DNA of 64,000 nucleotides from Dipteris shenzhenensis. Its lineage: Eukaryota. Positions 1 through 40,028 of the stretch are shown one piece after another. The translations under genes and the position numbers were made by a program. The notes beneath the pieces were generated by a model. The model saw nothing but the letters and a program-made list of their open reading frames with translations. It ran no database searches and was not told the origin of the DNA. The first letter of the stretch is position 1; each line of letters opens with the position of its first letter. The stretch is from the NCBI GenBank assembly GCA_047967505.1, contig CM106538.1, one strand, 5' to 3'.

Positions 1-128
1 ATATATATATACTACTGTGTGTACTTGGGGAGGTACCACTCATTGTTTATCCCCACCTATTGGTGTCTACTGTGGGTGTGTCTCCCCTCCTCACTCCCAA
101 ACTCCTACTCTCTCCCTCTTCTATGTCA
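1..128 (+). repeat. 5' LTR (3' part) of copia element
   Basis: Direct repeat of ~6066-6193; ends in CA just before the PBS. Confidence 0.95.
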
Positions 129-130
129 AC

Positions 131-143
131 TGGTATCAGAGCC
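131..143 (+). promoter_or_regulatory. Primer-binding site (tRNA-iMet)
   Basis: TGGTATCAGAGCC, 2 bp after the LTR end. Confidence 0.95.
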
Positions 144-1821
144 ACTGCTCTACTACTCCTCTCCCGATCCCCTCCATCCTCTCCATCCTCACGGGTCACG
201 CTTGTTCTCAGCCAGCCAACGGGCAGCGTCTTTTCCATCACGAAAGATTCAGCTCGCAACTCTCTCACTTAGCCAGCCAATGGGTGGCTTCACCATAGTG
301 AGGGAGCAGACATTCAGTGTTGCATTCAGCAGCTAGTAGCTAGCAGCTAACAACCGACAGCCAGCCATTGCCGCAGCAACAGCACGCATATGTGACAGGC
401 AAGCGAGCAACAGCACGCATATGCATCGAAGAGGCGGCAACAACCAACAGCTAACAGAACAGCTAACAGCCGGCAGATTGCAAACGTGTACGACAGACAT
501 CGTGGGAGCTTTCAGACACATCATTGCACAGGTATAAGCGTGGGTGGTGCAAGGGCATCGAGTGCCTAGGGGCATGCATTTCTGCGTTTTCTCATATCTC
601 GAGGGAAGCACACATATTGTGTTTCGTGTCTTCCTGCTTCTTGATGGTGATCTTTTTTTTGTCATCACACGTGGAGGATCTTCTACTGAGTCCTACTTGG
701 GCTCATATATCGAGGAGGGGAATTTCTTAATTTTTCGTTGTCTACGAGACAACATTACTCTATCACATTTTGCCATTGGCATTTGAGCCAGGGGTTCTAC
801 TTGTCGCAGGGCTTTTACTCGCACTGAGGCTTAGCTTATGCCGCAAACAATGTCGAGACAGGTCTATCACCTAGCCAGTGATTGTACGTCAATGAAATCA
901 TTCGAGTACAGCCATTAATGCAGTGTATGCATTTGCATGATCTGTTGATTGACACTTGCAGTGTATGCCTTTGTTGGACGCAATTCAAGGGATTTGCAGT
1001 CACATGCCTTGTATAAGCTGTGGAGGACATTTGCAGTGTTTATGCACGGAATGTGCCATCCCAACATGGGGCTTTTGATGCTACAGTGATTTGAAGTATT
1101 GTTGTATTTTTTATGTAGAGAGTACCTTCACGCAGTGGGTAGATTTGTTCAATTTTGTCCAACTTTGACTTTTGTCAAATTGGGGCTTTTGTAGCCTGAC
1201 CGACAATTTGTCCAGTGGGAGTACTCAGGATGAATTCTCTTGTCTCGTGGAGTGCATCTATGCCTTGAAAGTGCAAAATAAATTTGGGGCTTTTAGTCAA
1301 AAGTCAAATTTATCAGGTTTTACGATCAAATATCTGATTATCTTCACGCATTCAGAGGGCTTTTGAGCCACTTCACCTCTAGACTGTATATTCAGTTGGG
1401 GGGGAAGCTATTGGAACATTTGGAGGTCTAAAATCAGGGATTTTCATCAAAAATCAGAGATTTCCTGTTTTTTTTTAACAGTCCGGGACTGTCACACAAC
1501 AGGTTTGACCAGTTTTGACCATCAGAGAGCCAAAAAGTACTGCTGTTTTTTATTCGAACTGTTTTGGATTTTTTTGGAGCATCTTGACACAGCTATACCG
1601 CACTTTCGCCAGTGAAAATCACAGGAACAGCTTGCTGTACCTTTTCTGTAGCAAGTGGGAGAAAGACTTTAAGGTGGTTTTGTGCCACTGAAACAGTGAA
1701 AGATCACTTTCAACTTCACTTCCGCTGCGGGAGATTTATTTGGAGTGACTTGTGCTTTAATTGCACACCTATACAGGGAGTCAGGCAGTTCCATTGAGGA
1801 ACAAACTCTTCTTTCTTTACC

Positions 1822-4800
1822 ATGAGTTCTAGCAGCGACGTGTCGTCCTTGTTCCAGATAAAGAAGCTCAAAGGAGCTAAAAACTACGACATATGGAGGA
1901 CACAATGCTACAATGTGTTGATGCAGAAGGACCAGTACAAACCTATAAAGGAGAAGGGTGTTAAGCCCTCCAACATTACTGATGAGCAGTGGGAGAAGAT
2001 GGACAACTTGGCCATGTCAACCATAATGCTTACAGTTGTTGATTCACTGGTTGTAGGCATCAGAGATGAACCTACTGCGTGGAGAATGTGGCAGCGTCTT
2101 GAGGATACATATGCCAAGAAAAGTACCACGGGCAAAGCTTACTGGTTGAAGAAGCTTGTTGGGCTTCAGATGAAGGAGGGGACACCTATGTCCACTCATA
2201 TTATTGAGTTCAACAGCATTTTCAGCCAGGTGATCAACTAAGGGTTGAAGCTCGATGATGAGCTGAAGGCTACACTTATCCTATGTTCTCTTCCTGAGTC
2301 ATGGGATACATTCAGAACTTCTACCAGCAATTCGAATACCATACTATTATTTGCAAAGGTGGAGAGCGCTCTTCTACAGGAAGAGATGAATAGAAAGAAT
2401 AATGCTGTTGGGAAGTCAAATGCCTTGAATGCACGCAGCAGGTCAAAGACACGTGGTAAAGACAAAGAAAGAGAAAGGAGCAAGTCCCACTCGAAGAAAG
2501 ATCTTGTCTGCAATTATTGTGGCAAGAAGGGACATGTAGAGAAAAAATGTTTTCAGAAAAAGAACGACGAAAGAGCCAAAGAAGGCAAGGCTCAAGGCAA
2601 GTCAAAGGGCAAAGAAAAAGAGGAGCTGCATGTTACTTATGTTAGTGACAGTGACAGTGGACGTGAGGTATGCTTCACTTCATCACTGAAGGCTCATACA
2701 CTTCATGCTAGCTTTCCTGGATTATAGATTCAGGTGCTTCCTTTCATGTGACACCCTACAGAGATCTGTTTGTCAGATATGCAGGTGGGCAAAAGGGAGT
2801 TGTTATTCTTGGTGATAACCATGCATGTTCTATCATTGGCATAGGTGATGTCAGGCTTGTTCTTGAGAATGGCCAGCAGTTAATGCTCAAAGGGGTCAGG
2901 CATGTTCCTGAGGTGAAGAAGAACTTGATTTCCACAGGGTTGTTGGATGACGATAATTATCATACCACCTTTGGTAATCAGAAGTGGAAAATCAGCAAAG
3001 GGGCAATGGCTATAGCCAGAGGTCCTAAACTTGATACTTTTTATTCACTTCATGCAGGACATTGTCCTCATTCCGATGTAAATGCCGCCGAGCTGCCAAA
3101 GATTTCATTGTGGCATAGCCGGCTTGGCCATATGAGTGTTAAGGGAATGGAGCAACTGGCTCATTTTGGTTACTTGCCGAGTCTAAAATTTTCAGATTTA
3201 AAGAAATGTGAATTTTGTCTCTACGGTCGTCAAGTACAGATTCCTCATAAGAGGGCATCAAATCAGAAATTACAGCTCTTGGAGCTTGTCCATACCGATG
3301 TATGTGAGATGCCTACTATATCTTTAGGAGGAGCAAAGTACATTTTGTCATTTATAGATGATGCCACCCGCAAAGTGTGGGTTTACACTCTTAAAAGAAA
3401 GAGTGATACCTTTACTGCTTTCACTAAGTTTGTTGCACTGGTCGAAAATGAGACAGGCAAGAAACTGAAAGCTTTGAGGTCTGACAATGGTGGAGAGTAT
3501 TTGTCCAAAGAGTTCCAGGAATTCTGTGAGGCAAAGGGCATTCAAAGGGTGTTATCTACACTGTATGATCCACCACAGAATGGTACCGTTGAGAAAATGT
3601 TCAGGACCATTCAAGAAAAGGTCAGATCTATGTTGTCACATGCTGCGTTGCCCCACACTTTTTGGGCTGAAGCTGTAAAGACAGCTGTGCACCTTATAAA
3701 TAGGTCACCGAATAAGAGATTATGTGGTGGTGTGCCTGAAGAGGCATGGACGGGTAAGCCTCCGTCTTACAAACACCTACGGGTCTTTGGTTGTGTTGCG
3801 TATGTGCATGTACGCAGGGAGGACAGGACTAAATTAGATCCAAAGACTCTGAAATGCATTTTCCTAGGGTATGGTGACAAAGGTGAGATGGGCTACAGAC
3901 TATGGGATCCCACAAACAGAAAACTTATACGCAGCAATGATGTCGTGTTTGATGAAACCATCATGTTCAAGGAACCTGTTGTACAACAGGGACCTTTAAA
4001 AGTAACTATTGATGATGACAGGCATCATGGGCAACACAGACCGACTGTAAATCAGCCACAACAGCAGCATAATCAGCCATTAAATGATGCTGCAGCAGGT
4101 CCAAATGAACAGCCAGATATGGTAGATGATATCCCAATGGATGTACCACAGTTAGATGATCTTCCTGACATGCAAATGCAGCCAAAACTGGGTGATGAAC
4201 AGGCTGGACAGCCACCTCATGATGATGGTCATCAAGTTAGAAGGTCAACCAGACCGACACGGTAGCCAGACAGATTTATTCCTGGCTTTGATTATCTAAT
4301 GCTCACTGATTGTGGAGAGCCTTCATGCTACAGAGAGGCTAGGCAGAGGGCAGACAAGGTTCAATGGGATCTTGCTATGAAGTCTGAAATGGACAGTCTT
4401 CACAAAAATGGCACTTGGGAATTGGTACCCTTGCCTACTGGTAAGAAAGTACTGCCATGCAAATGGGTTTATCGACTTAAAGTCACACCTGGTGAAAAGC
4501 CAAGGCATAAAGCCAAACTGGTTGCCAAGGGGTTCAAGCAGGAATATGGTGTTGACTTTGATGAGATATTCTCTCCTGTCGTTAAGATGACAACTCTCAG
4601 AACTGTATTAGCATTGGTTGCACATGCAGATATGGACTTGGTCCAAATGGATGTCAAGACGGCATTTCTTCATGGTGATTTACATGAAGAGATTTTTATG
4701 CAGCAGCCAGAAGGTTTTACAGTGAAGGGAAAGGAGAAGCTTGTGTGCAGACTGAAGAAAAGTCTTTATGGTCTTAAGCAGGCACCCAGAGAATGGTATC

Positions 4801-5865
4801 ATAAGTTTGATACATTCATGCGAACCCAAGGTTATAAAAGAAGTGACATTGATCACTGCTTGTATACCAAGAAAGCTTCAGATGGCAGTTTACTGATCCT
4901 CATTTTGTATGTGGATGATATGTTGATTGCTGGAAAATCTCATAAGGAGATCGATGCCTTGAAGAAAAGATTGCACCAAACCTTTGATATGAAGGATCTT
5001 GGTGATGCCAACCATATACTGGGCATGCGGATACTTCGGGATAGGGAAAAGCGGTTGCTATACTTGTCTCAGAAGGAATACATTGGCAAGGTCTTGCAGA
5101 GATTTCACATGGAGGGGGGGAAGAGTATTGGTACTCCATTGCCTCCTTATGTGAAAATCAGTGCTTTGGACAGCCCTCAGACAGATGCTGAGAGGGCTGA
5201 AATGTCAAAGATTCCGTATGCATCAGCGTGTGGCAGTCTCATGTATGCTATGGTTGCAACCAGGCCCGATATTGCGTTTGCAGTGGGAGTGGTTAGTAGA
5301 TACATGGCTAAACCTGGCAGGAAGCATTGGGATGCAGTGAAAGGTGTCATGAGATACCTGAAGGGTACACAGGACTTGTGTATATGTTTCGGCAGTCGAT
5401 GCAAAAGTGCAGGGTTATACAGACTCTGATTATGCCGGTCACCCTGATACCCGGAAGTCTACTACCGGATATGTTTTCACTTTCACTGGAGGTGCAGTGT
5501 CGTGGGTATCTAGAATGCAGCAGTGCATTGCTCTGTCTACTACAGAAGCTGAATATATTGCAGCCACTGAGGCATGCAACGAAGCTATACGGCTATCTCG
5601 GCTAGTGGCAGATTTGGGCTACTCTAGTGATACTCCATTGTTGCATTGTGACAGTCAGAGTGCCATACAGTTGGCACGAAATCGTGTTTTTCATGCAAAG
5701 ACGAAGCACATCGACGTGAAGTATCATTTTATCAGGGAGGTGCTTGAGAACAAGCAACTTCAGCTTGTGAAAGTTCACACTGATGACAATTTAGTAGATC
5801 TGTTGACCAAAGGATTGGCTGCTGAGCGGTTTGCACATTGCAGACGGCTAATGGGTATAGGTTAA
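1822..5865 (+). pseudogene. Copia gag-pol polyprotein, disrupted
   Basis: Gag (LPESWDTF, zinc knuckle CNYCGKKGHVEKKC), protease (WIIDSGASFH at ~2718-2747), integrase (LWHSRLGH, VHTDVC, LRSDNGGEY), RT (QMDVKTAFLHG, LYVDDML), RNase H (YTDSDYAG, TEAEYIA, CDSQSA). Stops at 2239-2241 and 4263-4265; frameshifts near 2715 and 5400. Confidence 0.95.
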
Positions 5866-5955
5866 GGCCAGTCTACTGGTCTTGTATATTATGATGTATA
5901 TGCTGTTTTTTTTCTTTTCTTTCTCTTGAGGGCACATTGCCTTTAAGTGGGAGGT

Positions 5956-6193
5956 TGTTGGGGTAAGGCACTGGCCACCCTATGTAACAGTTTTTAGTCT
6001 AGTACTGCTAAGTACACTAAGTATGCATTGTACTTAGTGCCTAGTGGTCCTAGCCTTATCCAAAGATATATATATACTACTGTGTGTACTTGGGGAGGTA
6101 CCACTCATTGTTTATCCCCACCTATTGGTGTCTACTGTGGGTGTGTCTCCTCTCCTCACTCCCAAACTCCTACTCTCTCCCTCTTCTATGTCA
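5956..6193 (+). repeat. 3' LTR of copia element (238 bp)
   Basis: TGTTGG...TGTCA, preceded by the PPT. Predicted TSD AGGAG (6194-6198); its left partner is outside the window. Confidence 0.95.
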
Positions 6194-9100
6194 AGGAGTG
6201 CCATTCTCCTTTTCCAAAGTAGCCCATATATTTTCTTGTTTAGAATGAGCTGCTGGAAATTTAAGAATTGAACCTGCTTGAAACTCTGCTATTCTATTAA
6301 GTGCTCCTGTACTACTCAGCAAATCAAAGCCATCATAGCATCTTTCATTCCAAACCATTCCACCCACCTTGCTGAAAAAATTCTCACATGCATCCGATCC
6401 TGTGCAAGAAAGGGGTACGTGCAAGTGAGGATGCTTTTCCCTAAAGGTCTTTATCAAGAGAACCACAAAGTGACATGACAATTGAATGTTAATGAATGTT
6501 TCTGTTAGAATCCAAGAGCATGTGCCTAGCGTGCCCCCTGCCAAGACCGCTAGCACCTCACGGAAGTGCACAACCTTCATGGCCACTACAGAGGCTCTGG
6601 CATGTGTGTATGGCAGGTCCCCACCCCTGCCATAAGGCACCCTTGCCTAGCCAGCCCTCCAACCTCCACAAAAGGCAAGCTTGGGGGAATTGAAGATAGG
6701 AGGGGCAACTTGGACTATTTATGTCCCTTCATCTTCCACACACCTTTGTATGTGGGATAATTCAACCCTTTCTCCTTCTTCTTATCCCCTTTGTCCATGA
6801 GAGATTTGCACCTCCAACACCCCCCTCCAATCGATCATGGAGAGAGGTGGCCGGGGATCAGCATGTGCCTAGCGTGCCCCCCGCCAAGACTGCTAGCACC
6901 TCACGAAAGTGCACAACCCTCATGGCCACTACGGAGGCTCTGGCATGTGTGTATGGCAGGTCCCCACCCCTGCCATAAGGCACCCTTGCCTAGCCAGCCC
7001 TCCAACCTCCACAAAAGGCAAGCTTGGGGGAATTGAAGATAGGAGGGGCAACTTGGACTATTTATGTCCCTTCATCTTCCACACACCTTTGTATGTGGGA
7101 TAATTCAACCCTTTCTCCTTCTTCTTATCCCCTTTGTCCATGAGAGATTTGCACCTCCAACAATTTCTCTACTGATAAAGTTTTGCTTTAGGGAGTATGC
7201 ATCATGTTTAGTGATCCACATGCACCAAATCCTACATATAGAAAGAACCATGAGTATTAGCCACATAAACCTTGGAAATATGTTCAAAATCCTTTATTCA
7301 TATATCACTAATAGCAATGGTAGCAACTTCTACATACCTGAAAAAGAAAGACACCTTTCCTGCAGCTTTCACACAACCATACAAGTCTAAGGTAGGTGAT
7401 AAGAAAATATCAATGTAAGATGCTACTATTGATAAGTACATACGTGTGCCCAATGTCTGCTCTTGGTGAGCACCATAGCCTTCTTGTAATAACTTCAAAC
7501 ACTTTTGTACTTTCTTTGCAGCAATCCTTTGTGCAGCTCTCCAATTTTGTCTATCCTTCCTCTCAATATCCCCTTCTTGCAAGCCATGTTCATCAACCTT
7601 GAATAATTGATATACAATTGCTACATAATTCAAAGTCACAAGCTCTCTACCAAGTACCAACCTCCTAGATGCACTATCCAAAGGATTGATAAGTTTCTTT
7701 CCATTATGGATATAGTCTTGATCATGCAAACCACTGATACTCCCATCAAATGTGATGTGTGCTGTAAAGGGCCAACCCTTCCAAGGAATGCACAACCTGG
7801 GACCTTGACAAGAAGAGTAATCTTGCAACATCAACTTTCTGCGCCTACTATCCCCATCTGAAGCATGTCCTATCAATGGACCTACCACGTCCCTTAGAAA
7901 AATGTTCCAAGAAAGCTGAATGCTCTCCCACTGTTCTCTGACAAACATGGAATCAAACGTATTACATGTCAATTGCACCAATAGAACTAGCTTTGGCAAG
8001 CATTCAAGAAGAGGATTCACTATCAATACCCTTGCATAATGAGCAATCACATTATGTTGAAAAGCATCCACAACTCTAAGATATCCATCTTGACCATCAC
8101 CAACTTGCATGACAAAGTCTGGAATGCAAGTGTGTTCCAGCTTTTTACCACAAAATCCAACCAAAATATCATCACGTGCCACCCATCTCACCATTCTTTT
8201 CACAACTGTTTCATCCTCAGCTAGAAGAACTGGCACACTACCCAAGGGTATACCTTTCTTCATCATGTGACAAGTGTAAACTTCTCTTGCATGTTGAAAT
8301 ATATCCTCTTGTAAACTAGTTCGAAAGAAAAGTGCTTTTCTTGTGGACCTCATTGTGGTGGACATGTGTGGACCTCCAAGGTTAAGTGATAAGAAATTAT
8401 GCTACCTTGTCCCTCCCCATATCTTGACAGTCTCAAATAATTCCTTTGTTGTATTGGAATATCTCTTCCCTTGACCTACTCTTGAAATGTTTTGTGAAAT
8501 GTCAACAAAGAAGTTCCACAATGCCTTCTTTCCCTCAAATAGACATAGCTCATGAGCATTGATTATATCTTGACAAAATTTTCTAACATCTTTCCTCACC
8601 ATGGCTTCCATAGTGCTCTCCCGAAGACTTCTAACCTTCACGCTCAATGCAACAACTTCAGTTCTTGTGAATGCTATCTCCTTCTTCAATACCTGAACCA
8701 TTGTGGACTTTGTTTTTGCTACTCTCAATAACTCTAAATGAGTCAAATAATCTAACCGTCTACCACCTCCTATGTCTCTTGATCCACGAGTGTCTAAAGA
8801 TCAAATTTGTCGATACACTCGCATGCGAAAGTCTCGTTCTTTAGGAATAGTAGCACATGCACAACATTGCAAATTATCAAAGTATGTTCCCTCCAAACAT
8901 ATTCGCTTGCAATCCTTATGACGGAAAGTGCCATTAATTTCAATGAACTCTGTTGTCCCCATCATAATTGTTGCCTTAGTTGCTGGCTCATTGTGCCATT
9001 TGCCACCTCCCTTACTATCATCCAAAAAGGGCTTCAAGTCAACCACATTCCCATCATAGTTATATGACCCTTACCAAAAACCCCAACACAAGGTTGCAAG

Positions 9101-10549
9101 CAAGCTACTCTCTGTGAGCAAAGGAGGAATCTGTTAAGTTCCCAATAGACTTGATGGAGAGAGAGCCAAAAGCCATATGACTAGCTACACCTAACATCTC
9201 TATAAAAAAACAGAAATAGTGATTGAAAATAGAAGCTTGAAAATTTGCCTAATGGAGAGAGAGCCAAAAGCCATATGACTAGCTACACCTAACATCTCTA
9301 TAAAAAATCAGAAATAATGATTGAAAATAGAAGCATATGAGAAATACCTGATGGCTTTTGTGATGCATTGGCAGTTTGCAAGGTGTCATTATCTATAAGA
9401 AAACATTACAATAGAGCATAAGAAAAAATGTTCACTTGGAAAATACAAAATTGATGGAAAACACAGCTAGAACATGTGAGTTTTACCTTTAGCAGAACAT
9501 TTCTTGAAAAAACCACTTAGATCTCTTTGCTTCTTATCTATAATTGTCACCTTGGATGGGCGACCACCAGCCCTCTTCACTTGATTACTAGAATCAATGC
9601 CACTAGCCTTTGTGATATGTAGCTTGGATTTCATATGCTCAATCATGCATTGTCGTAGAGATCCTGTCTTTGGAAATAGTGGTATCCACTTGTTATCTAG
9701 CATGCAGCTTATATAGACTTTTGATAGAGTGCTATATTCTCCAATAGTCTCTGTTACTAGTTGAAACACCACATTACTCTCACTTGCAAAGGTTGAAACC
9801 TCCAACATTGCTTCATTTACTTTTTCTTTTCCTAATTCCATAATGTCATCCAATGAACCAAGGCTCACATAACCCAATAATCCTCATATGGGATGCTGAG
9901 TTGATGTGTGAGTGTGTGTAATTATACAAAGTGTCAGGACCCCCTTGACCATAAGAGTAATCACACTCCTCACACCAAATTTGAAACAATGCTTTACCAT
10001 CCTTGTCCTTTGACATGAGCTCAAATCTATCATGTCGGCCTTTTGCTCTTAACTTTTCTTTGGCTATCTTAATCTCCCTCTTCCATTTTTTGACCTCAGA
10101 TGGTGTTGCAAGGTGACTCTTCAATCGATTCTTAGAAACACTACCACACGTAGTCGAATCATCCACCATATTGTACCTCTCACACCCTTGAGCAAGATCA
10201 TGCATACATAAATCTGGAGACACTGTACACTTTGGCTGCATTTTATTGCTATCTCCAACTGAGTCCACTTTTTGGCGTTTGCCTTGTGTATCATATTCCA
10301 TTTTCAATTGGATGGTTACTTCTGCAGTATCAACTATCCATCTCTCCTCTTGCTTGGCCCCTATTGGAATTTTCCTGAATCCTCCCAAAAATATAAAATC
10401 ATCTATGATGAGATAATCAAGGATGATCTCTTCTCTCAAGTCCTTGTAGGTATCACCGGTTTTAAGATGAACATATCCCAACACGAGCGCAACACATGAT
10501 TTTCAGCCACACCCTCATCTAACACAATCACAATATCATGCCTCTCCAT
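6194..10549 (-). pseudogene. P-element/THAP9-like DDE transposase with introns, disrupted by frameshifts and two insertions
   Basis: Motifs in P-transposase order: HTH-like RYSNTTKEL...WGG...NFLSLNLGGPHMSTT; catalytic D in LLAEDET (~8214); D in HASDGD (~7857); QDYIHNGKKLINPL (DxxH, ~7717); DRQNWRAAQRI (~7555); FFFR/IWCMWI...NFISRETF; E in GSDACENFFSKV (~6384). N-terminal C2H2-like fingers (CEEC...HINSASH). GT-AG introns near 7232-7338, 9131-9347 and 9393-9486. Confidence 0.7.
6503..7162 (-). mobile_element. TRIM-like or internally deleted miniature LTR element (660 bp) inserted in the transposase
   Basis: TGTT...AACA ends. Two near-identical ~300-317-bp direct repeats (6503-6819, ~6860-7162) flank a 40-bp internal segment with a minus-strand PPT (GGAGGGGGG). 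5-bp TSD GTTTC/ATTTC. Removing it restores the reading frame NFISRE-TFINIQ. Confidence 0.85.
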
Positions 10550-11385
10550 GCTCCTATAAAAGGGCTAGATAACAAAAAAGGTGCCCAACAAGATAATCTC
10601 AAATGGACAGCAAAACCTGTTGTAAAGTAAAGAAAATGAGGAAAAAATTACAGCAAAACCATCATTAACATGTTCAAAATGAAGGATGAAATGGACATAA
10701 AACCTGGAGCAAAGTATGGAAGAATCAGAGCTGCTTCAAGCCAACAATCTCCTTTTGAAGCTTACAACTACTCTAGCAACTAGTAACAAATTACAACACC
10801 TGTAAACAAATTCCAACCAAAAATATGTGAGTTGAAGTAGAAACATAGGCCTTCTCAATGCATTATTTGCAGTAGCAGCAAAACCTATTGTAAAGTAAAG
10901 GAAATGAGGAACAAATTACAGCAAAATCATCATTAACATGTTCAAAATGAGGCATGAAATGGACATAAAACTGTTGACATGTATGGTGATATACAGCTAC
11001 AAATGTGATTATGGAAGCGTGCAGACAAGGAGTACGATTCTCAAGCCCACCTTGTCAACCACACATAAGGCCAAGCAGGCTGAGAGCACAGTAATAGCAC
11101 CAAGTCCTAGCTGAAAGCTGGCTAGTTTGAACTAAAAAGATTGCAAAAGAGTATGGAGTCATTGCCAGTTAATTGTGTAGAGAATGGGAATGCCCAAGTG
11201 GTATATATAGCTAGCTGTGGCCATTTGAAGGTCTTTTAACATGCTTTTGAAAGGATTTTCCAGCTCTCTGGCAAGTCCCCTACTCTATCAGACTCATGGG
11301 CAACATGGCATGGCTCTCTTGGACTGTATTGGACCCGAAAACATGGCATGGCTCTCTTGGAGGGGAGTAAAGTAGAGAGAGATAG

Positions 11386-13199
11386 ACATTAGTCGGACAC
11401 ATCTACGGGGACCTCAACTTAGAGGTGTGAGCTCGACACCAAAACCTTCAGCAAATGAAACTCCATGCACACGGCCTTTGACTCGGCTCCAAAACTTCTA
11501 CGACCTGCAGCCACCCGACTTTGCATATCCGAGGCACCTATCATATCCTAAGGCCTTCTGCTAAGGTCTAAGCACCTATGCAGCGCTTCTGAGCCTCCTC
11601 CATCTCCAACGCAGTCCGGCAGCCGGCAGTAGCTCTAAGGCCATCGACTCTCCAGTGCCAAACTTCCTCTCCATTGACTCCAACAGAGCTCTAGGCGGCT
11701 CATCAAGCCAAGCCACTCCTCCATTCTAGGTGTCTACTATAGCAAGCTCTCCTTTGTTGCTTCAAACAATATGTGACTCCATCTATGTCAACAAGAGCCT
11801 CCAAGGCGTGCTCCCTTGCTACACAACGAATGCGGCACGGACTCACGATACATGTTTGATCAAGCTCGTAGCAATCCCCAGGAAGCTGATTGTTGAGTTC
11901 TTGAATGGCGGACGCATCCAAGAGCTCAAAGCTCCGACAGCCTCCAAGCTTGCTCTTAAACTTTGCCCACCGACGGACCTCTCCAATAAACATCAGTCGG
12001 ATACATCTACGGGGACCTCAACTTAGAGGTGTGAGCTCGACACCAAAACCTTCAGCAAATGAAACTCCATGCACACGGCCTTTGACTTGGCTCCAAAACT
12101 TCTACGACCTGCAGCCACCCAACTTTGCATATCCGAGGCACCTATCATATCCTAAGGCCTTCTGCTAAGGTCTAAGCACCTATGCGGCTCTTCTGAGCCT
12201 CCTCCATCTCCAACATAGCCCAGCAGTCGCTAGCAGCTCTAAGGCCATTGCCTCTCCAGTGCCAAACTTCCTCTCCATTGACTCCAACAGAGCTCTAGGT
12301 GGCTCATCAAGCCAAGCCACTCCTCCATTCTAGGTGGCTACTATAGCAAGCTCTCCTTTGTTGCTTCAAACAATATGCGACTCCATCTATGTCAACAAGA
12401 GCCTCCAAGGCGTGCTCCCCTACTACACAACGAATGCAGCACGGACTCACGATACATGTTCGATCGAGCTCGTAGCAATCCCCAGGAAGCTGATTGTCGA
12501 GTTCTTGAATGGCGGACGCATCTAAGAGCTCAAAGCTCCGGCAGCCTCCAAGCTTGCTCTTAAACTTTGCCCACCGATGGACCTCTCCAACAAACATCAA
12601 TCGGATACATCTATGGGGACCTCAACTTAGAGGTGTGAGCTCGACACCAAAACCTTCAGCAAATGAAACTCCATGCACATGGCCTTTGACTCGGCTCCAA
12701 AACTTCTACGACCTGCAGCCACCCAACTTTGCATATCCGAGGCACCTATCATATCCTAAGGCCTTCTGCTAAGGTCTAAGCACCTATGCGGCTCTTCTGA
12801 GCCTCCTCCATCTCCAACAAAGTCTGGCAGTCGCCAGCAACTCTAAGGCCATCGCCTCTCCAGTGCCGAACTTCCTCTCCATTGACTCCAACAGAGCTCT
12901 AGACGGCTCATCAAGCCAAGCCACTCCTCCATTCTAGGTGGCTACTATAGCAAGCTCTCCTTTGTTGCTTCAAACAATATGCGACTCCATCTATGTCAAC
13001 AAGAGCCTCCAAGGCATGCTCCCCTGCTACACAACGAATGCAGCACGGACTCATGATACATGTTCGATCGAGCTCGTAGCAATCCCCAGGAAGCTGATCA
13101 TCGAGTTCTTGAACGGCGGACACATCCAAGAGCTCAAAGCTCCGGCAGCCTCCAAGCTTGCTCTTAAACTTTGCCCACCGACGGACCTCTCCAACAAAC
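11386..13199. repeat. Tandem array, three copies of a 604-bp unit
   Basis: Units start at 11386, 11990 and 12594 and are highly similar. The ORF track shows triplicated ORFs. Confidence 0.95.
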
Positions 13200-14579
13200 G
13201 CTTCTATCAAGCCACGATGTGCAACTTTCAACAGTAGCAGCAAACAAAGGAGAAACGATGAGCAAGGGTGTAGGGAGGCGAGGCTTGGAGGGCAAAAGCT
13301 GGGCTACTTGCCAGGGCAATGGAGGTTGAAGAGGCAAAAGTACAAGGCATAAGATAGGGCAAAAGTCATGTGCAAGATAGGAAACCCATTTTCCCGTGCT
13401 TCCCCATTTCCCCCCTCCATTTTTGGGGATAAAATTGGCTCCATTTCACCATGGTTAAGAAAACAAAGAGTATGGTCAATCGTGTGAAAAGCCCTCACTC
13501 ATGGGATAGGCCACATGTGTACACATACTTGGGAGGGCAATTAATTTCTACTTTTGTTGGCAAGCCAACCAACCTAATTACTTTATAACATCTTTTCCAA
13601 GCCCAAATATATCATGGTTTCCTTAGTTATTAGGTTCACCGCCACTGATCCATAGTGTATTAAGGCATTTGTAATGGTGTCCTTCAATGCACATCTTTGC
13701 TTTGATAGTTCTAGGTTCATCGTCTCTCATAGATTGTCCCAAGACTTACACATAGCGGTCACATGACTTCCTTCCTATCACAAATTCTAAATGAAGGGTT
13801 CTATTAAGAAATTCACTATTCAAATAGCGGTCACACAGTCGCAATATTGAAAAGACACATGTATATTACACTACTATAGACACTAGAATAAAATATTAAA
13901 CCTATATTAAAGAGAGAATGATTTAATGATATATTTGTTTTATATTATGAAAGATTGTTTATATCATGACTTACAAGGTTGGATCTCAAGTTCCTTGATT
14001 TGAACCACCCTTAAAACCAATATTCTTGGATCTACAACATTGGGACTCCATGTAGCCTTCCATTACTCCATTTTTTACTTAATCCTCTGATAGATAGTCT
14101 CTTTGTCTTTGGGTGATTGGGCAATTTTGCAAAGTGTGCAAAGCAAAGTGTACTAGAAAGATAGAGTGAATATTTACAAATGCCAAAAGAGAATAAGGAC
14201 AACTTAGGAGAACCAGCTTGTGGTCAAAATCAAAGAGTGAAAGAGTGAGAGGGTATAGGTGTGGGTGTGGTGGTGTTCATGTGGCCATGTTATGCTTAAT
14301 TTGCTTGTAGGAATGCATTACTATGGAACATTTCTTACACCTTTTTCCATAGCCTTTTCTCTTATTTTCTCTAAACATTAGCCCCTTTAATTAGCCACGA
14401 TTAGTTCTTTGATTACCATAATTAACAATAAGAATCACCATCAATGAAGGAGACCTAGTGTTAGTTTTGGGCTTAGTTCATGAACACCTAGTGACTGACT
14501 TATCAAATGAGTATTTGTGTGTCATTTCTACATCGGGTCTACATCTAGGGTAAAGATTAGTTCCCCCCCCCCCTCCCAC

Positions 14580-14719: not shown

Positions 14720-17700
14720 AAAAGGACATTGCGCTCGACACACAAACATGACGCTAATACCCAAATCATGCGTTTTTTGGATACGAGAAAGTACAAATCC
14801 AAAGAGAGCAAACTTCCAAAAAAGATCAACTGCAAAAAGACTTACCTTGGATAGAGGTATGGAAGGTTCTTCTCCTTTTTAAAGTTGCTTCTCCTCCTTG
14901 TTTGCCCTCCTCTCCTTTAAGCTTGGAAGTAAGTGTGGGTGCCTTCCTCTTAAGTGTAAGCTTGGAAGTAAGTGTGGGTGCCTTCCTCTTAAGCGTCGAA
15001 ACTGTGGTTCTGCTAATAAGGAAGCAAGCAAGCTACGTGAAGTATAAGTAATGTGAAGAAAAGCGAAGCGAGCGCGCTAAAAGCAGGTTTAAAAGCCGTG
15101 TCTAAAAGCGCGTCTATAGGCACGTCTAAATACACAGAGTAGATGCGGTTTTAGATGCGCTTTTAGATGTGCTTTTAGATGCACACCACAGAACAAACAT
15201 CTGGACGCGATTTTAGACGCGCCTTTAGATGCGCCACAGAGTTTAAAATTAAACATTTGAAGAAGAGCAAATTTTTTTGGGTTGTTTGTTTGTAGGATGT
15301 CTTCATCTTCAACAAGTAGCTCTAGTGAGGATGAATCCCTTTGTATCCACCATCACGAAATGTGGTTGGAGCAAAAAATCAAATGTATGTGTGATCGATG
15401 TCGAGGAAACATGTATCGTGCACGCAGGATTACACGCAATCACATCTCAAAGTATGGAGAATGGGATGTGACCATAAACAGGGTAAGGGTTTGTAAGTTA
15501 AGGTTGATTGAGATACCTATGGGTATTCATATGTTTGAGTTATGATCCCGTTTTAATTTGATATAGGTTGCAGTGCCACACCCACATATGTTGCCCTATG
15601 CTCGCCATGAGGAGGCAAAGCGTCGGCAATATGAGGTGGGATCTTCAGGAGGGACCATTACGGATGCATGGAGTGATGGTGATAGTAGCCCTCCACCATT
15701 ACCTCATGAAGCCGTGGAGGAGGACGTGTTTGATGATATGGTGCGGGATTTATATGTCCATCAAGGGAGGGATGATAGCATGGAGCAGGATTATCTTTTT
15801 ACTGCAGCATCGACTCCACTGTTTGAGGGGTGCACATTCTCTGTTCTACGTGCCTCCCTTGAGTTACTAAACTTGGAAACTATCTATGGATGGAGCAATG
15901 CAAGTTTGAATGCATTACTCAAGTAAGCTTTAAAGTCTATTTTGGAAACATGGTGAATTATGCTAGTGGGTCAATTACTTGAATGCTTTTCTTCATTTAT
16001 GGTCTTCACGTGCAGGCTATTGTGTAAAATGCTTCCAAGGGAGAATAAATTACCGACCTCAAGAGATATGGCAAGGCAACATGTGACCTCTCTTGGAGGA
16101 TTAGATTACAAGCGCATCCATGCATGTATCAACGATTGCGTTTTGTTTCGTGGACTACATAAGGATGCAAGAGAGTGTCCTACTTGTGGAGAGGCAAGAT
16201 ATAGAGCAAATCTCAAAACTTTGGACGTGCCTCATAAGGTTCTGCGACATTTTCCCATAATCCCTCGCATCCAACATATGTTCAAGTGCAAATCTATTGC
16301 AGAGCTCATGTCATGGCATTCCTCCCATCGATCAACTGATGGCAAGTGGAGAACTCCCGCGGACTCTCCTGCATGGAAGCATATTGAAGACACATGGCCA
16401 AGCTTCAAGGAAGAACCTAGGAGCTTGAGACTTGGATTGGGTATGGACGGTGTGAACCCATTTGGTCTCAAAAGCACGTCTTACAGTGTATGGCCAGTGA
16501 TATTGGTGAATTATAATCTTCCACCCTCTATGGCTATTAAGAAAGGACATGTTATGCTGTCCCTTCTAATTCCAGGGAAACATAAAGTCAAAAACCCTGA
16601 TGTTTATTTGGAGCCTTTGATTGACGAGCTAGAGATACTTTGGAGAGGTATCGAGGTGCATGATGTGAGCAGGCCTCCCTCGTCACGAGACTTTAACTAC
16701 AAAGCAGTCTTGATGTGGACGATGCATGACTTCCCAGGCTATGGCGAGTGTTCAGGTAAGCATTGCACTTCTAATTATGAATAGGCAGAGGATGTGGCAC
16801 CCTAAACCCACCTTCAACTCTTAATTGCATATATTGTTCAGGTCTCACTACATCGGGCTACCATGCATGTCCTGTTTGTGGTCCTTCACTAGTTGCCTCA
16901 TAGGCAGACGCATTGAATAAGGTCATCTATGATAATCACCATCGATTTCTCCCACCTAATCATCTTAGATATGTTGCCCCTTGGAATGAAGTCCTCCCAC
17001 AATCACTCACCGTGGGAGATTGGATGAGAATTTGGGACGGTTCCACGACTCCTCCACCACTTGGCATGAGCTGGTAAGGGTTTGTAACTATTGTGTGCTA
17101 TATTGGTTGGAAATAAAGATTGTTCGCTAACACTTTATTTTGTTTAGATAATCCATCTTTTATCGTTTACCATATTGGTTCCACCTCAAGATCAATCACC
17201 TGCTTCATCCCATGCATATCTTCAAGAATGTGGCATCTACCATTTGGGAGCATTTGAATGGGACACGAGATTCTATAGGCATAAGGGAGGATCTACGTAC
17301 CACAGGAAGGATGCGTGAAGCTTGGCCACAAGAGAGACCAAATGGGCATGTTTTTTTACCTCATGCACCGTGGATGTTATCAAAGCTAGAGATGGCGACG
17401 GTGAAGCCTGCTATTACTACAATTCGTACTCCTAGTAGATGCATGAGGTGTTTGAAGGGAGCCTTTACAAAGAGTAAGAAAAGAGGTGTAGAGCAATTAT
17501 ATGGCTTGAAATCTCATGATTGTCACAAGATGCTCCAAGTATTTTATGTGCATAATATCTTTTTCCTTTCAAATTTGTGAGTGAATAATTATAAGCAACT
17601 AATCAACCACCTCCTCGTGGGTTCAGTTCATACTACCTACTAGCATTTCATGTAGTGCATCGAAGGACATGAAAGATTGTATTTACAAGATGGGCAAGCT

Positions 17701-26355: not shown

Positions 26356-29300
26356 GTATGGGTGGTCGGATACAAGTGTCTCGGCCTTAATGAGGTTAGC
26401 TCTTGCATTAATTTGACTCATTATTTGGATATTGTTTGTTTTGAGAATCATCATTTGGATAGTGTCTTTGTCATAGGTTGCTCCAGAAGATGTTGCCTAC
26501 ATCAAATACCATGCCCGCATCAAGAGATGAAGCGAAAAAGATGCTAACAACGGTGGGTATGGATTATGATACCATCCATGCTTGCCGTAATGATTGTATT
26601 CTCTTTCATCGTGAGCATGGAGATTTGGCTAGTTGTCCAAAGTGTGGGGAACAATGATATAGAGATGACTTGTAGGGTGAGCGGATACCGGTAAAGGTCT
26701 TGAGACATTTTCCCATCATTGCAAGAATACAACACATGTTCCGATGCAAATCCATAGCGGAATTGATGACATGGCATGCATCTCATCGGTCCACTGATGA
26801 CACATTGTTGAGGATTCCTGCAGATTGTGCAGCTTGGAAGCACATAGATAATCAGTGGCTAGACTTTGCGAGGGAGCCACGCAACTTACATCTTGGGCTA
26901 GCCATGGACCGCGTGAATCCTTTTGGGTTACGCTCGACATCTTGGTCGACATGGCCCATAGTCATGGTGAATTACAATATCCCACCATGGCTAACAATAA
27001 AAAAGGGACACCTCATGCTTGCACTACTTGTGCCAGGAAAGTACAAGGCAAAAAACATGGACGTGTACATGGTACCTTTGATAGAGGAGTTACAGATATT
27101 ATGGAGAGGAGTGCAGGTCTTTGATATTTCCAAAGCTCCTAGACATACCAATGATATTTTGGTCAGAGGTATCTTGATGTGGACCATGCATGACTACCTA
27201 GGATATGGAGAGTGCACAGGTACGTGGTTGTATCTTTACATGTACAATGAGGGATTATGCTTTTTTGACTCTCTTTTGCACGCATGTCTTATACTAACAC
27301 ATTCATGCACGCATGTAGGACTTGTTACAAGTGGGTATCATGCTTGTCCTATTTGTGGACCAGCTCTGAAATCGCTTGCATGCTACTCCAAACATATGAG
27401 AAAAAATGTTTATGAAGGTCATGCTCCATACCTTCCGCTCGACCATCTCGCACGTGGAGGTCAGCTTGATCCACCACCATCATATTTGAAGGCAAGTGAC
27501 TGGATTCAAGCTTGGAGGGTGAATGGAGAGGAACCTCCTCCTAGTATGAAGAGGCTTTTGATCTTTCACGAGCTTCCTTATTGGGGTCAATTACAAATCA
27601 ATCATCTCTTGGATCCCATGCATATCTTCAAGAATGTGGGGGCTACTATTTGGGCACACTTGGTTGGTTCCAAGGACTCGAGAGGAGTGTGAGAAGACTT
27701 GCGTGCTATGAATAGGATGTCTCATTTGTGGCCCCAAGTGCAGGCTTCGAGAAAAGCTGCCCTCCCAAAAGCAACGTGGATCCTCTCTACGAGGGAGGAG
27801 GCAGCGGTCAAGGCAGACATTGCCTCTTTTCAAACACCGATAGGGTACATGCGTTGCTTGAAAGGAGCATTTTCAAAGGACAATAAGCTTAGTGGGCTCA
27901 AGTCCCATGATTGGCACGAGGTCTTACAGGTATTCTAAGTAGAATTAGTGTACTAATAATCGTGATGCGTTAGCATAATTATTATTATGTTATATTGTTG
28001 ACATGACTTCATTGTTGCTTTGATAGTTCATCCTCCCAATTACAATAAAAGGGTGCTTACAAGAAGATGTTAGAAATGCTATATTCAAGATCTGTGGTAT
28101 TGTGAGGTATGCTTACTATCGAATTGTATTATGTATTTTCTTCATGGACATGTGAAATAGGTGGATATCTCAAATATCTTACATATGCATGGACATGTGA
28201 AATAGGTGGATATCTCAAAAAGAGATCTCTATATCGAGCATCGAGAAGGCTAGGGTGGAATCCATCGAAGCCGTATGCTTGCTTGAGAAGCACTTTCCCT
28301 CGAGCATTATGACAGCTCAAGTCCACTTGCTTGTGCACATAGTTGATGAGGTGGCTATAGCAGGTACCGTTCATAGTCGATGGATGTTTTTTCTCGAGCG
28401 GTTTATGAAAACTTTAAAGTTATTTGTAAGACAAAGAGCAAGACCGGAAGCAAGCATGGCATAGGGATGGCTTGTGCAAGAGTCATTAGTATATATCATA
28501 GAGTTTCTTGCATCCACGGATCCCGATATGCCGCAAGCTTGGCACAACAAGGATGATGATCGCATCGTTGGCGAGGTTCCCCAAGGAAAAGGGATTGAAA
28601 GAAAGATGAGCGAAGAGCAAATGGAGAAATTCAATAAGTTTTGTATCCTCAATAGCCTTGAGATACAGAAGTGGATTGAGAGATATGAAGTGGCCAAAGC
28701 AGAAAGAATAAATGCAAGGACGAGATTCAGAGTAATGTACAGGCAATCACAACCATATCCACAGGATCTGGCTCTTCTCCCTACTCACATGTCACTTGAT
28801 TGGCTACAACTGGCTCTACGTAAAGCCGAACGTGATGGAGAGACAATAAACGAGCGCGAGCGAGAGTTATCATCTGGATGTATGGTGTATGTAAGTTTCT
28901 TACCTCTTGACGTAATTAAGTAATTATTTGTGGCAATATATGCTATAAAATAGATGCATCTTCATTGTTTTAATGATGCTCTTTTACAGTACAAAAAGTA
29001 CAGTGCATTATGGTCATATGGACGACATTTTTGTGTGGAACGCATTGATTCAAAGAGAGTCACATATGATTGTGGAGTCATGGCTAACTTCACACAAGAT
29101 AGCTGAGCAAGTGCTTCAAATACCAATCTTCTCTCCTCACAGTTGGATTATTGTGGAACCATACGCGACATCTATGAAATTGATTTCAGACGATTTACTA
29201 TTTTCATTCTTGATGTAAAATGGTTTAGAACTACTTACAATGGTCCCCATGCGACAGTGAGAAAAGATAGTAGCGGTCTCTTTGCAATAGACTCCACCAA

Positions 29301-36532: not shown

Positions 36533-38527
36533 TGCCTGACCAAACCTCTTCTGGCACTTTCCCATCTAGTGCCTTGCTAGGCGATCTATTGATAAGATGT
36601 ACTGCTATCTTGATAGACTCAACCCAAAAGCCATGAGGTAGACCAGCATTAGAAAGCATGCTTATATTCCTTTCTTGAATAGTTCTATTCATCTTCTCAA
36701 CAACCCCATTCTAAGAAGGATTCTCAGGAGTAGTCAACTCCCACTTGATGCCATGTAGCTTACAAAAATTCTTAAATGCATGAGAGGTATACTCTCCTCC
36801 ATTATCAGTGTGCAAGCATTTGAGCTTCTTGCCCGACTAATTTTTAGCAAATGCTAAGAATTTTTGAAATGCATCAAAGACATCACTCTTCTTCCGAAAA
36901 GGATAGACCCACACTTTCCGTGTAGCATCATCAATGAAAGTAGCAAAGTAGGAAGCACCACCCAATGAGACAGTAGGCATAGGTCCACACACATCACTAT
37001 GAACCAACTCCAATGGTACAAGCCTCTTCTTGCCCAAAGATTTTTTATGTGAAGACCATGTTTGCTTCCCATACATGCAATGCTCACACATGCTAAAATC
37101 TGAAAAATTAAACACGGGAACATACTACAAACTAGAAAGTATCTTCATTCCTGTCATATTTATGTGTCCCAACCGACGATGCCACAAAGAAATGGATGGC
37201 TGCTCGGTCACATTGATTACATTATCTCTTATGCCTGACACATGCATTGAGTACAACGTTCCATGCTTGGAACCTCTAGCAATCACAAGTGACCCTTTGC
37301 TAATTTTCCATGTATTGTTGTTAAAAAACACATGATAGCCATCATCATCAAGCTGTCCCGTACTTGTCAAGCTCTTTTTCAGATTTGGAACATGCCTAAC
37401 ATTCTTGAGTATGAATGTAGAACCATTAGGAAGAGACAAGTGGATATCTCCCACTCTGACAATGTCACATGGATAATCATTTCCAAGTCTCACGGTTCCT
37501 TTCCTTCCTGCATCATAAATGGTAAACCACTCCCTATGTGGAGTGACATGGAAAGATGCTCCTAAGTCTAGTATATCCAATTCTGTGATAATGCATCATC
37601 ACTAGTCACAAGAAAAGCATGCTCAAACATAGAGGCATAAAGAATGTCACCCTCATCACTATTGTTACTTATGGCATTCACTTCCTCTATTTTGATCGTG
37701 GATTTCTCTTCCTTCTTGGGCTGCACATTAGCTTTGCCTTTGCCTTTATCGTTCTTCCATTTGTAGCAATCCTTTTTGAAATGGCCTTTCTTCCCACAAT
37801 AGAAGCATTGCAAATCCTTTTTGGCATGGGATTTTCCTCTAGATTTGCTTCTAGACTTGCTTGTATTTCTATCGTGGTATTTCCCCCTGGAATATGACCT
37901 CCCTCTCACATTGAAGGCACTTGAACTTTTAGTTCCAGCATTGTTCTTTCTATTTACCTCCTCAGTGAGAAGGCTACTCTCAACATCACTGCTTGTCAGG
38001 CCTCCTGCACCGGCTGAATTGCTTATAGCAATCTTAAAAGTGTCCCAACTTTCAGGAAGGGTGACCAATAACAACATTGCCTTAATTGAGTCATCAAAGG
38101 CAATTTTATGAGCTGAAAGTTGAGTGAAAATTGTGTTAAACTCATTTAAATGGCTAGACATTGAAGTCCCTTCTTCCATGCAAAGATCTATGAGTTTCTT
38201 CATCCAATACACTTGACAAGCAGCACTTTACTTCTCATAAAGATCATGCAACTTTGTCCACACACCATAGGCACCACCTGCAGTATCTTTCACATTGAAA
38301 TACACCGATTTTGATAGTGTGAGCATGATCGTGGAGCATGCAAGCTCATCCATTTCCTTCCACTCTTCATCATCTTCCCAATCCTCTAGCTTTATGCCTT
38401 TGCATTTTATAGGCTTTACTTGCTTCTTCTGCACTAGAACATTGTAGATTTGCTCCTTCCAATAGGAGAAGTTCATGCCATCCAACTTCTCAATGTTAAA
38501 CAATGCATTCTCTGATGCCAAAGCCAT
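36533..38527 (-). pseudogene. Truncated Ty1/copia gag-protease-integrase, related to the element at 1-6193
   Basis: MALASENALFNIEKLDG, LPESWDTF, CFYCGKKGHFKKDC, ILDLGASFH, LWHRRLGH, VHSDVCGP, VPEEVWSG. Breaks at a short tandem repeat (36449-36532); no RT or LTR seen. Confidence 0.92.

Positions 38528-39959: not shown

Positions 39960-39962
<3 letters not shown>

Positions 39963-40026
<64 letters not shown>
39963..40026. repeat. (TG)n microsatellite
   Basis: About 32 TG units at the 5' break of the LINE. Confidence 0.95.

Positions 40027-40028
<2 letters not shown>

Follow-up and report, generated by a model that had tools for sequence, protein, structure and literature searches.

The window analysed here, a stretch of 64,000 nucleotides from Dipteris shenzhenensis (GenBank assembly GCA_047967505.1, contig CM106538.1), holds a decayed transposase copy at positions 6195-10549 on the minus strand, in which all motifs stand in the expected order. 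It is likely that this stretch is a dead, nested copy of an autonomous cut-and-paste transposon and that its transposase belongs to a deep, unnamed branch of the P/THAP9 group. At the upper coordinate, 10549, stands an ATG from which the N-terminal frame begins if an 11-nt insertion missing in related copies is disregarded, and the lower coordinate adjoins position 6194, the final base of the 3' long terminal repeat (LTR) of a Copia retrotransposon. Five motifs quoted in the first-pass annotation of this DNA were all located by translation on the minus strand in the order given: AEDET (8207-8221, with the catalytic Asp codon at 8213-8215), SDGD (7850-7861), QDYIHNGKKL (from 7720 downwards, with DQDYIH at 7706-7717), DRQNW (7541-7555) and SDACENFF (6374-6397, with the Glu codon of GSDACENFF at 6383-6385). 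A tblastn search of the whole window with eight relatives matched only 9133-7337 and 6532-6206. On this evidence, the motifs, their order and the coordinates of that annotation are correct.

The transposase core occupies 7337-9133 as one frame, as indicated by tblastn, translation, the invariant residues and the fold of the relative P0012. Three stop-to-stop frames on the minus strand, 8801-9070, 8402-8800 and 7298-8401, represent a single reading frame split by stops, and translation of 9133-7337 gives 599 codons that include LLAEDETVV, HASDGDSRRRK, HDQDYIHNGKKL and KDRQNWRAAQ. Residues 1-591 of the relative P0001 match 9103-7328 at 68% identity (tblastn). In the core, a Cys/His module (FRHKDC...CCAC) comes first, with a long helix and a helix-turn-helix after it and then the N-terminal half of an RNase H domain. 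The coiled-coil proposed in the first-pass annotation corresponds to a segment predicted as a long helix in a relative. The core is followed by a putative 104-nt intron with GT..AG ends (7233-7336, minus strand), the removal of which is needed for the frame, and by a short coding piece, IWCMWITKHDAYSLKQNFISRE (7164-7232, minus strand), which matches FFFR-IWKLW...NFISRE of the relatives and continues the frame for 22 codons (7232-7164) until a 665-bp insertion. Past this insertion the frame restarts at 6498 with TGSDACENFFSKVGG and runs to about 6209. This last coding piece within the window (6195-6498, minus strand) carries the C-terminal half of the split RNase H with the catalytic Glu, which corresponds to E424 of P0012, and P0124, P0129, P0134, P0140, P0012 and P0122 match 6532-6206 at an E-value of about 1e-25 (tblastn).

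Upstream of the core, the N-terminal coding region (9489-10549, minus strand) contains a ubiquitin-like domain, two C..C..H..H motifs and the segments GRP and QRDLSGFF. By tblastn, residues 131-343 of P0128 match 10490-9882 (E 6e-11) and residues 293-395 of P0140 match 9802-9506. The linker between the N-terminal exon and the core (9134-9488, minus strand) is poorly resolved and shows no tblastn homology. A tandem duplication of 98 bp lies within it (9154-9334), and one or two introns together with a mini-exon are probable there.

The window copy is heavily damaged. The core carries three in-frame stops, on which the first-pass annotation is silent, at 9071-9073 (TAA), 8801-8803 (TGA) and 8402-8404 (TAG); those at 9073 and 8803 are coding-strand C-to-T changes, and that at 8403 is a transversion. 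Set against related copies, the N-terminal region has lost 23 bp at 9862 and gained 11 bp near 10479. The 665-bp secondary insertion (6499-7163, no strand assigned) divides the insertion domain of the transposase and consists of two tandem 343-bp units of another repeat, visible as a direct repeat of 6517-6816 and 6860-7159 with 98% identity. Where two insertions had been proposed, there is a single insertion containing two units. Five letters fit on either side of its joint. Contigs on 6499-7163 reach a summed depth in the thousands in sequencing run X1, far exceeding the flanks, which suggests that this repeat is a short element present in very large numbers in relatives of the host.

The copy is further interrupted by the Copia element, which occupies 1-6194 on the plus strand with a partial 5' LTR at 1-129 and a 3' LTR that ends at 6194. 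Window positions 1-129 equal 6066-6194 at 99% identity as a direct repeat, and gag, integrase and reverse-transcriptase frames lie between them (integrase and reverse transcriptase at 2712-5865, plus strand); the gene is therefore cut by a young Copia element whose end falls exactly at 6194. The Pfam families rve, gag_pre-integrs, Pol_BBD and SH3_retrovirus match 2712-4265, and the named relatives of the Copia integrase are angiosperm elements at about 50% identity. Because the relatives of the transposase run about 390 residues further, the remaining part of its gene must lie to the left of the window.

Contigs from the Logan resource for 4 of 22 listed runs, representing four organisms, were aligned to 6195-10560, and all four runs give the same picture of the copy. 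The contigs run straight from 6498 to 7164, replace the three stops by sense codons (CAA Gln, CGA Arg and TTG Leu), carry an extra 23 nt behind 9862 and miss 11 nt near 10479. The 23 nt unite the N-terminal frames 9846-10502 and 9467-9883, and without the 11 nt these join the ATG at about 10549. Of 127 differences between contigs and window, 40 were listed and 18 of these could be placed in frame. Twelve are common to all four runs and comprise three stop removals, eight residue changes and one silent change; among the six that vary between runs, four are silent. Compared by eye, four differences approach P0001: Q in CWGFWQ, L in GGTRLHNF, G in GLFEGK and T in SRDTGGG. Two of the three stop changes are C-to-T on the coding strand, as are three of the eight residue changes, at CG (CGA to TGA, CGT to TGT, CGG to TGG) or CA (CAA to TAA, CAT to TAT). 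The number of contigs on this stretch at 88-99% likeness, 553 in X1 and 223 in X3, points to a repeated family, with the reservation that depth does not equal copy number. Because the contigs keep the frame open, the window copy is a degenerate representative of a family that, in its common form, has an open frame in related genomes. With its stops, frame-breaking insertions and deletions, repeat insertion and Copia split, the window copy itself cannot work.

These contigs also bear on the gene structure. The apparent intron between the two N-terminal frames is the 23-bp deletion, according to the contigs of all four runs, and no splice joint was found at 7233-7336 or within 9134-9488 in the same contigs. 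The segment 7233-7336 is retained in all contigs aligned, including those of run X9, which is RNA only by guess, and relatives such as L003 are without it; its status as a putative intron derives from its GT..AG ends and from the frame. The several introns proposed in the first-pass annotation thus find no support here: many relatives are intronless, one of the apparent introns turned out to be a deletion, and a spliced form was not seen among the contigs.

To characterize the fold, an AlphaFold2 model was built of the relative P0012, which is 46% identical to the window frame, with 64 aligned sequences; it is a model of this relative and not of the window copy (pLDDT 87.5, pTM 0.86). A Foldseek search against the PDB returned the Drosophila P transposase 6p5a_A with an E-value of 4.2e-8, probability 1.00 and a TM-score of 0.61 normalised to the target. 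P transposase appeared again at 1.1e-7, Transib came next at 1.1e-2, and nothing else fell below 1e-2. In VIA-align, 6pe2_A reached Z 23.6 with an rmsd of 3.4 A over 349 residues, pairing model residues 17-459 with chain residues 192-566; Transib reached 11.2, RAG1 at most 9.5, Tn5 7.8, Hermes 7.7 and Mos1 6.0. A search of 48,161 chains that was independent of Foldseek gave Z 23.5 for 6p5a_A and 8.5 for the next chain. Across 6p5a_A and 6pe2_A, the match covers 349-364 residues at an rmsd of 3.4-3.5 A and chain residues 175-566, a range that spans the helix-turn-helix, both RNase H halves and the helical insertion domain. The available text of one study of P places its GTP-binding insertion domain at residues 339-528 (PMC8230255). 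The structural comparison that had been proposed, AlphaFold and Foldseek against P transposase, therefore yields P as the best structural match, with Z-scores of 23.5-23.6.

The catalytic signature agrees with this placement. In P0012 numbering, D63, E64, D229, H232 and E424 are invariant in the 64 sequences, and D182 and D184 are at least 90% conserved. The family spacing is D-121-D-45-DxxH-195-E, and the corresponding values are given in the available text as 73-36-192 in P and 70-40-199 in THAP9 (PMC8230255). The pair D421-x-x-E424, the one feature bearing on GTP use that could be matched, is also conserved and has the same spacing as D528/E531 of P, where D528 is described as a GTP contact (PMC7776569).

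Sequence profiles point in the same direction at low scores. The only recurring Pfam families, all weak, are the P-transposase models, and they match at homologous segments. Among 45 core members, four match TNP-like_RNaseH_N at E <= 10 (best P0152, E 5e-4, 20.8 bits against a cut-off of 24.6), and one, P0250, matches the Tnp_P_element helix-turn-helix model at E 0.008, just ahead of the RNase H domain. P0193, the one of 12 long relatives with a match, reaches 49.4 bits with TNP-like_RNaseH_N against the cut-off of 24.6; it exceeds this value because its AEDET segment is present three times. According to BLASTP, the matches of P0193 and P0152 fall on the AEDET segment of the family. The TNP-like_GBD and TNP-like_RNaseH_C models gave no match in the Pfam searches of members. 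The Pfam P models thus do not recognise single-copy members at their curated cut-offs, and the weak matches fall on the expected segments. Among ESM Atlas neighbours of P0130, nine of the ten best named clusters share family or clan (scores 0.82-0.89), and nearly all clusters listed carry TNP-like families, which we treat as a lead only.

Plant-clade proteins carry about 430 N-terminal residues that are missing from animal members. Within them, two C-x2-C...H...H motifs are conserved in the plant clade, the second having lost a Cys in the window copy; their spacing exceeds that of a classical C2H2 finger and is nearer that of a BED finger. A further module, FRHxxC...CxxC (H/C-x-C-x2-C), lies ahead of the long helix in all members, including those of animals, with its three Cys invariant in 34 rows, and it occupies the position of the THAP domain of P. 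THAP domains are described in the available text as restricted to animals (PMC7776569). A model of the L003 N-terminus (pLDDT 78.1, pTM 0.38, as expected for beads on a string) shows a ubiquitin-like fold at residues 1-85 (Z 7.9, rmsd 2.4 A over 68 residues). Residues 141-266 resembled ribosome hibernation factors to a middling degree (Z 6.3-6.7), and no interpretation is given to this. In the fold search with this model, only the ubiquitin-like domain was named; THAP and BED folds did not appear, and are not excluded. The first-pass annotation had spoken of C2H2-type fingers in place of THAP, which is apt as a description of the motifs only, Pfam C2H2 models giving no match at E <= 0.1 in the 12 long relatives.

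The family is large and widely distributed. The 367-codon frame at 7298-8401 matched 135 proteins at E <= 0.001 among 1758 candidates of similar length, the best at 1.1e-179 with 72% identity, and 103 of 2861 longer candidates with lengths of up to 1530 residues. A phmmer search of 1.84 billion representatives gave 1044 matches at E <= 0.001, 477 at <= 1e-10 and 118 at <= 1e-30. Liverworts, ferns and some marine invertebrates share the family: the named plant sources are the liverworts Riccia sorocarpa, R. fluitans and Calypogeia fissa and the fern Adiantum nelumboides, and the named animal sources are a brittle star, a sea spider and a coral. All named proteins are annotated as hypothetical or uncharacterised, and the protein P0128 was found on 12 contigs. 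In a FastTree analysis of 63 rows chosen from the collected relatives, rooted at the midpoint with no P outgroup, the window copy falls into a 25-row clade (support 100) together with all nine named land-plant rows, and the three named animals fall into a separate 20-row clade. The family thus includes a land-plant clade, and it has no Pfam family of its own. Two members show additions at their C-termini. The sea spider protein P0193 (1171 aa), with its AEDET segments in tandem, ends in a YqaJ/viral alkaline exonuclease-like domain, and P0195 has a C-terminal PTM/DIR17-like Tudor domain; family members may carry varied C-terminal additions, and gene-model artefacts are possible.

Relatives also provided the element ends. 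Metagenome contigs were scanned with patterns from alignment A3, giving 37 loci; a scan with P0128 alone gave no relative. Several of these loci have uninterrupted frames of about 4.5 kb. The most complete, L003, combines a 1520-codon open frame with 49-nt inverted ends that are 84% complementary, and an identical 8-bp flank, GTTTTCAT, lies directly outside both ends. A regular-expression scan found 12 termini in 10 loci that start 5'-CYCGGGG..CACT, with tips of the form CYCGGGG...CCCCGRG. Alignment of 11 termini (10 from the loci and one from window position 46003) revealed an inner box, ACGTGCGTTCA, at about position 36-47, which by analogy may be a transposase binding site. P itself has internal transposase-binding sites, as described in the available text (PMC7776569). 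Copies in L005, L006 and L007 are 99% identical and diverge exactly outside the terminus tip. L027 and L028 are internally deleted derivatives of the L005-L008 element, keeping a 5' region of about 0.5 kb and a 3' region of 0.7 kb with the terminus, a pattern typical of non-autonomous cut-and-paste copies. The left ends of L005-L008, L027 and L028 merge into microsatellite-like sequence. At L013:1-56, a family terminus abuts the middle of the transposase frame of another copy, which looks like an element-in-element insertion within the same family. Candidate inverted ends at L011 lack a target duplication and may be due to chance. The intact frame and perfect duplication of L003, together with the contigs of the host's relatives that keep the frame open, may be signs of recent activity.

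The ends of the window copy itself were sought as well. No inverted repeat that could represent them was found within window positions 5800-14000, and no G-run terminus near 10.5-14.7 kb. Searching with an nhmmer profile of 10 termini from related loci identified two termini elsewhere in the window. At 46003-46071 (plus strand), a clear terminus of this transposon group reading CTCGGGGGGGTCACT and then TACGTGCGTTCA matches with E 6.4e-11 and 38.1 bits, with the element body extending rightward; its 24-mer had no chance match in 100 shuffles, and neither a partner end nor a coding part was found for it within the window. At 41317-41365 (minus strand), a terminus-like sequence reading CCCGAGGGATTCACT and then CACCTGCGTGCA matches with E 2e-5 and 20.6 bits, with the body extending leftward. 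Its orientation fits the 5' end of the 6195-10549 copy, but it lies 31 kb away; the terminus at 41365 may be the displaced 5' end of that copy. The two termini are oriented back to back, no transposase coding sequence adjoins them, and they may be solo ends or ends of non-autonomous copies.

Just upstream of the N-terminal end of the copy, 11382-12893 holds three tandem copies of a 604-bp unit, 94-95% alike, and two 96-nt repeats lie 268 bp apart at 10608-10971; these may be subterminal repeats of the element or an unrelated satellite. Besides plant-type Copia, the window holds two CACTA/EnSpm-type transposase fragments at 15957-16784 and 26676-27692, both on the plus strand (Pfam Transposase_21, E about 1e-49). 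A Copia gag lies at 37568-38227, and part of a reverse transcriptase at 39850-40410. The 21 window frames of at least 170 codons showed no ordinary host gene.

By analogy with P, an intact element would work as follows. The N-terminal zinc modules and the helix-turn-helix would recognise the element ends, each expected to carry the 5'-CYCGGGG..CACT tip with the ACGTGCGTTCA box about 36-47 nt inward, and the long helix would pair two protomers. The RNase H-like site, formed by the Asp of AEDET, the Asp of SDGD and the Glu of SDxCExFF, would then cut and rejoin the DNA, presumably backed by the DxxH at the start of the helical insertion domain, and integration would leave an 8-bp target duplication. 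Any use of GTP by the family would likewise be a matter of analogy with P.

Several observations weigh against assigning this family to P. No THAP domain was detected in the relatives or in the window frames, and a Pfam search of six window frames gave no match, with none to THAP at E <= 1. Eleven of the 12 long relatives have no Pfam family at all; these 12 give no C2H2, BED or THAP match at E <= 0.1, and no Pfam P model reaches its cut-off on any single-copy member. Profiles of 64 and 45 sequences missed P transposase in the PDB at E <= 10 and found no transposase. Between the first and the second Asp the family has about 50 residues more than P, and this stretch holds a conserved Cys/His cluster (C84, H90, C92, C146) that could not be related to P; structural alignment gives 12% identity to Drosophila P. 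Kolobok, KDZ/Zisupton, CACTA, MuDR, Dada and Novosib are without a solved structure, and being the closest solved fold therefore cannot rank these superfamilies. In L002, perfect 15-nt inverted ends lie 8.7 kb apart with no duplication, so that the duplication is present in one of the two two-ended elements. Much of this, namely the 12% identity, the P models below their cut-offs on single-copy members, the PDB profiles that miss P, the differing N-terminal modules and termini and the extra Cys/His cluster, would also suit a separate superfamily that shares no more with P than an ancient common ancestor and a domain plan, in the manner of Kolobok, hAT and MuDR. We regard such a status as unlikely: the gap between Z 23.5 and Z 8.5-11.2 far exceeds that between recognised sister superfamilies in the list, and the match to P includes the helix-turn-helix and the whole insertion domain. 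Moreover, the DxxH-to-Glu distance of 195 compares with 192-199, the 8-bp duplication is as in P, and the only recurring weak Pfam matches are to P models at homologous positions.

A domesticated, transposase-derived host gene like vertebrate THAP9, of which the window copy would be a pseudogene, could account for the contigs of all four runs and organisms reading the three stops as sense, for the silent nature of four of the six run-variable differences and for a gene that may have introns. It is nevertheless very improbable, given that the 553 (X1) and 223 (X3) contigs at 88-99% likeness point to a repeated family, that inverted ends, a target duplication and deleted derivatives (L027, L028) occur among relatives, that P0128 lies on 12 contigs and two family termini lie elsewhere in the window, and that the window copy is nested among other transposons. 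Membership in another known superfamily (Kolobok, KDZ/Zisupton, hAT or Transib) is hardly probable at all. The 8-bp duplication is also typical of hAT and of Zisupton. The C/DxxH motif is common to hAT, MuDR, Kolobok and Dada, and many Kolobok lineages have zinc clusters in the catalytic region, as far as the available text of one survey goes (PMC9587614). Against these stand the TTAA target and RR..YY tips of Kolobok, compared with GTTTTCAT and CY..RG in this family, and the Z-scores of 7.7 for Hermes and 11.2 for Transib, compared with 23.5 for P; in addition, no hAT, KDZ or other transposase is among the Pfam matches listed for the 45 members at E <= 10. An identity with hAT, Transib or Kolobok is thereby largely refuted. 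What was found as the best structural match was P, and the only recurring Pfam models were those of P, rather than Kolobok, KDZ, hAT or a host gene. The fold, the catalytic signature, the order of domains and the target duplication mark the transposase as a deep relative of P/THAP9. The assignment to a P/THAP9-type transposase made in the first-pass annotation is accordingly supported by the fold, by a weak Pfam signal in which only P models recur and by the 8-bp duplication in a relative. That the family is, in addition, an ancient branch of the P superfamily, undescribed in the literature searched, without its own Pfam family and with its own ends and DNA-recognition modules, is a more tentative proposal to which we give somewhat less than an even chance.

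On its own, the window copy is ordinary dead transposon DNA, and its interest lies in the family. If that more tentative proposal is true, the P superfamily would be older than the split between plants and animals, or would have crossed between them, and land plants would have a seventh terminal inverted repeat (TIR) superfamily beyond the six usually listed. A P-shaped family with its own land-plant clade would extend both the age of the superfamily and its known range of hosts, and would show that the catalytic chassis can work with very different DNA-binding heads. More than 1000 "hypothetical proteins" left blank by current domain libraries would gain an explanation. Intact members with defined ends could be tested as plant gene-transfer tools, and the family would be a candidate native transposon tool for non-seed plants.

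The comparison with known systems places these features in context. P elements are a textbook animal transposon, and no account of P-type elements in land plants was found in the literature searched, Repbase and Dfam lying outside that search. As far as the available portions extend, a review of land-plant transposons lists six TIR superfamilies and mentions P twice, both times for Drosophila (PMC9033089), and a survey of fungi records P only as single occurrences (PMC5751038). Among the Pfam matches listed for the 12 long relatives, the 45 members and 59 proteins, there is no KDZ family. KDZ/Zisupton elements have an RNase H transposase with CxC zinc clusters, for which Pfam models exist. The family resembles hAT in its 8-bp duplication, in an RNase H domain split by a helical insertion and in the C/DxxH motif; it differs in that Hermes (PDB 4d1q and others) reaches Z 7.2-7.7 at an rmsd of about 8 A, compared with 23.5 for P, and no hAT family, the dimerisation family included, is among the Pfam matches listed (25 of 32 families; 45 members, E <= 10). 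Many hAT elements have BED-type zinc-finger N-termini, and an 8-bp duplication is typical of hAT and also of Zisupton. Kolobok is likewise a DDE transposase with DxxH. In the available text of the same survey, the C/DxxH motif is common to hAT, MuDR, Kolobok and Dada, and Kolobok is described with a 4-bp TTAA duplication, 5'-RR..YY-3' tips, zinc fingers in the catalytic region of many lineages and a wide host range (PMC9587614). The present family has an 8-bp duplication that is not TTAA, GTTTTCAT, and CY..RG tips, and Kolobok is therefore excluded.

The family departs from P/THAP9 in several respects. The distances from the first to the second Asp (121 compared with 70-73) and from the second Asp to DxxH (45 compared with 36-40) are longer, a THAP domain was not detected, the proteins of the plant clade open with a ubiquitin-like domain followed by two CCHH motifs, and some 390 further residues extend the C-terminus; the family also lies below the Pfam cut-offs, and its hosts include land plants. 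Its ends start with CYCGGGG, unlike the ends of P. P transposase uses GTP as a cofactor and cleaves the donor with a 17-nt stagger. Nevertheless, the order of parts is common to the family and P/THAP9: a zinc-binding N-terminus, then the long helix and the helix-turn-helix, then an RNase H domain into which an all-helical domain is inserted. They further share the D, D, D(2)H, E signature, with a DxxH-to-E distance of 195 in the family, 192 in P and 199 in THAP9, and an Asp three residues before the catalytic Glu, as in D528/E531 of P. Inverted ends, a conserved box further inward and, in L003, a target duplication of 8 bp are seen in relatives of the window copy as in P.

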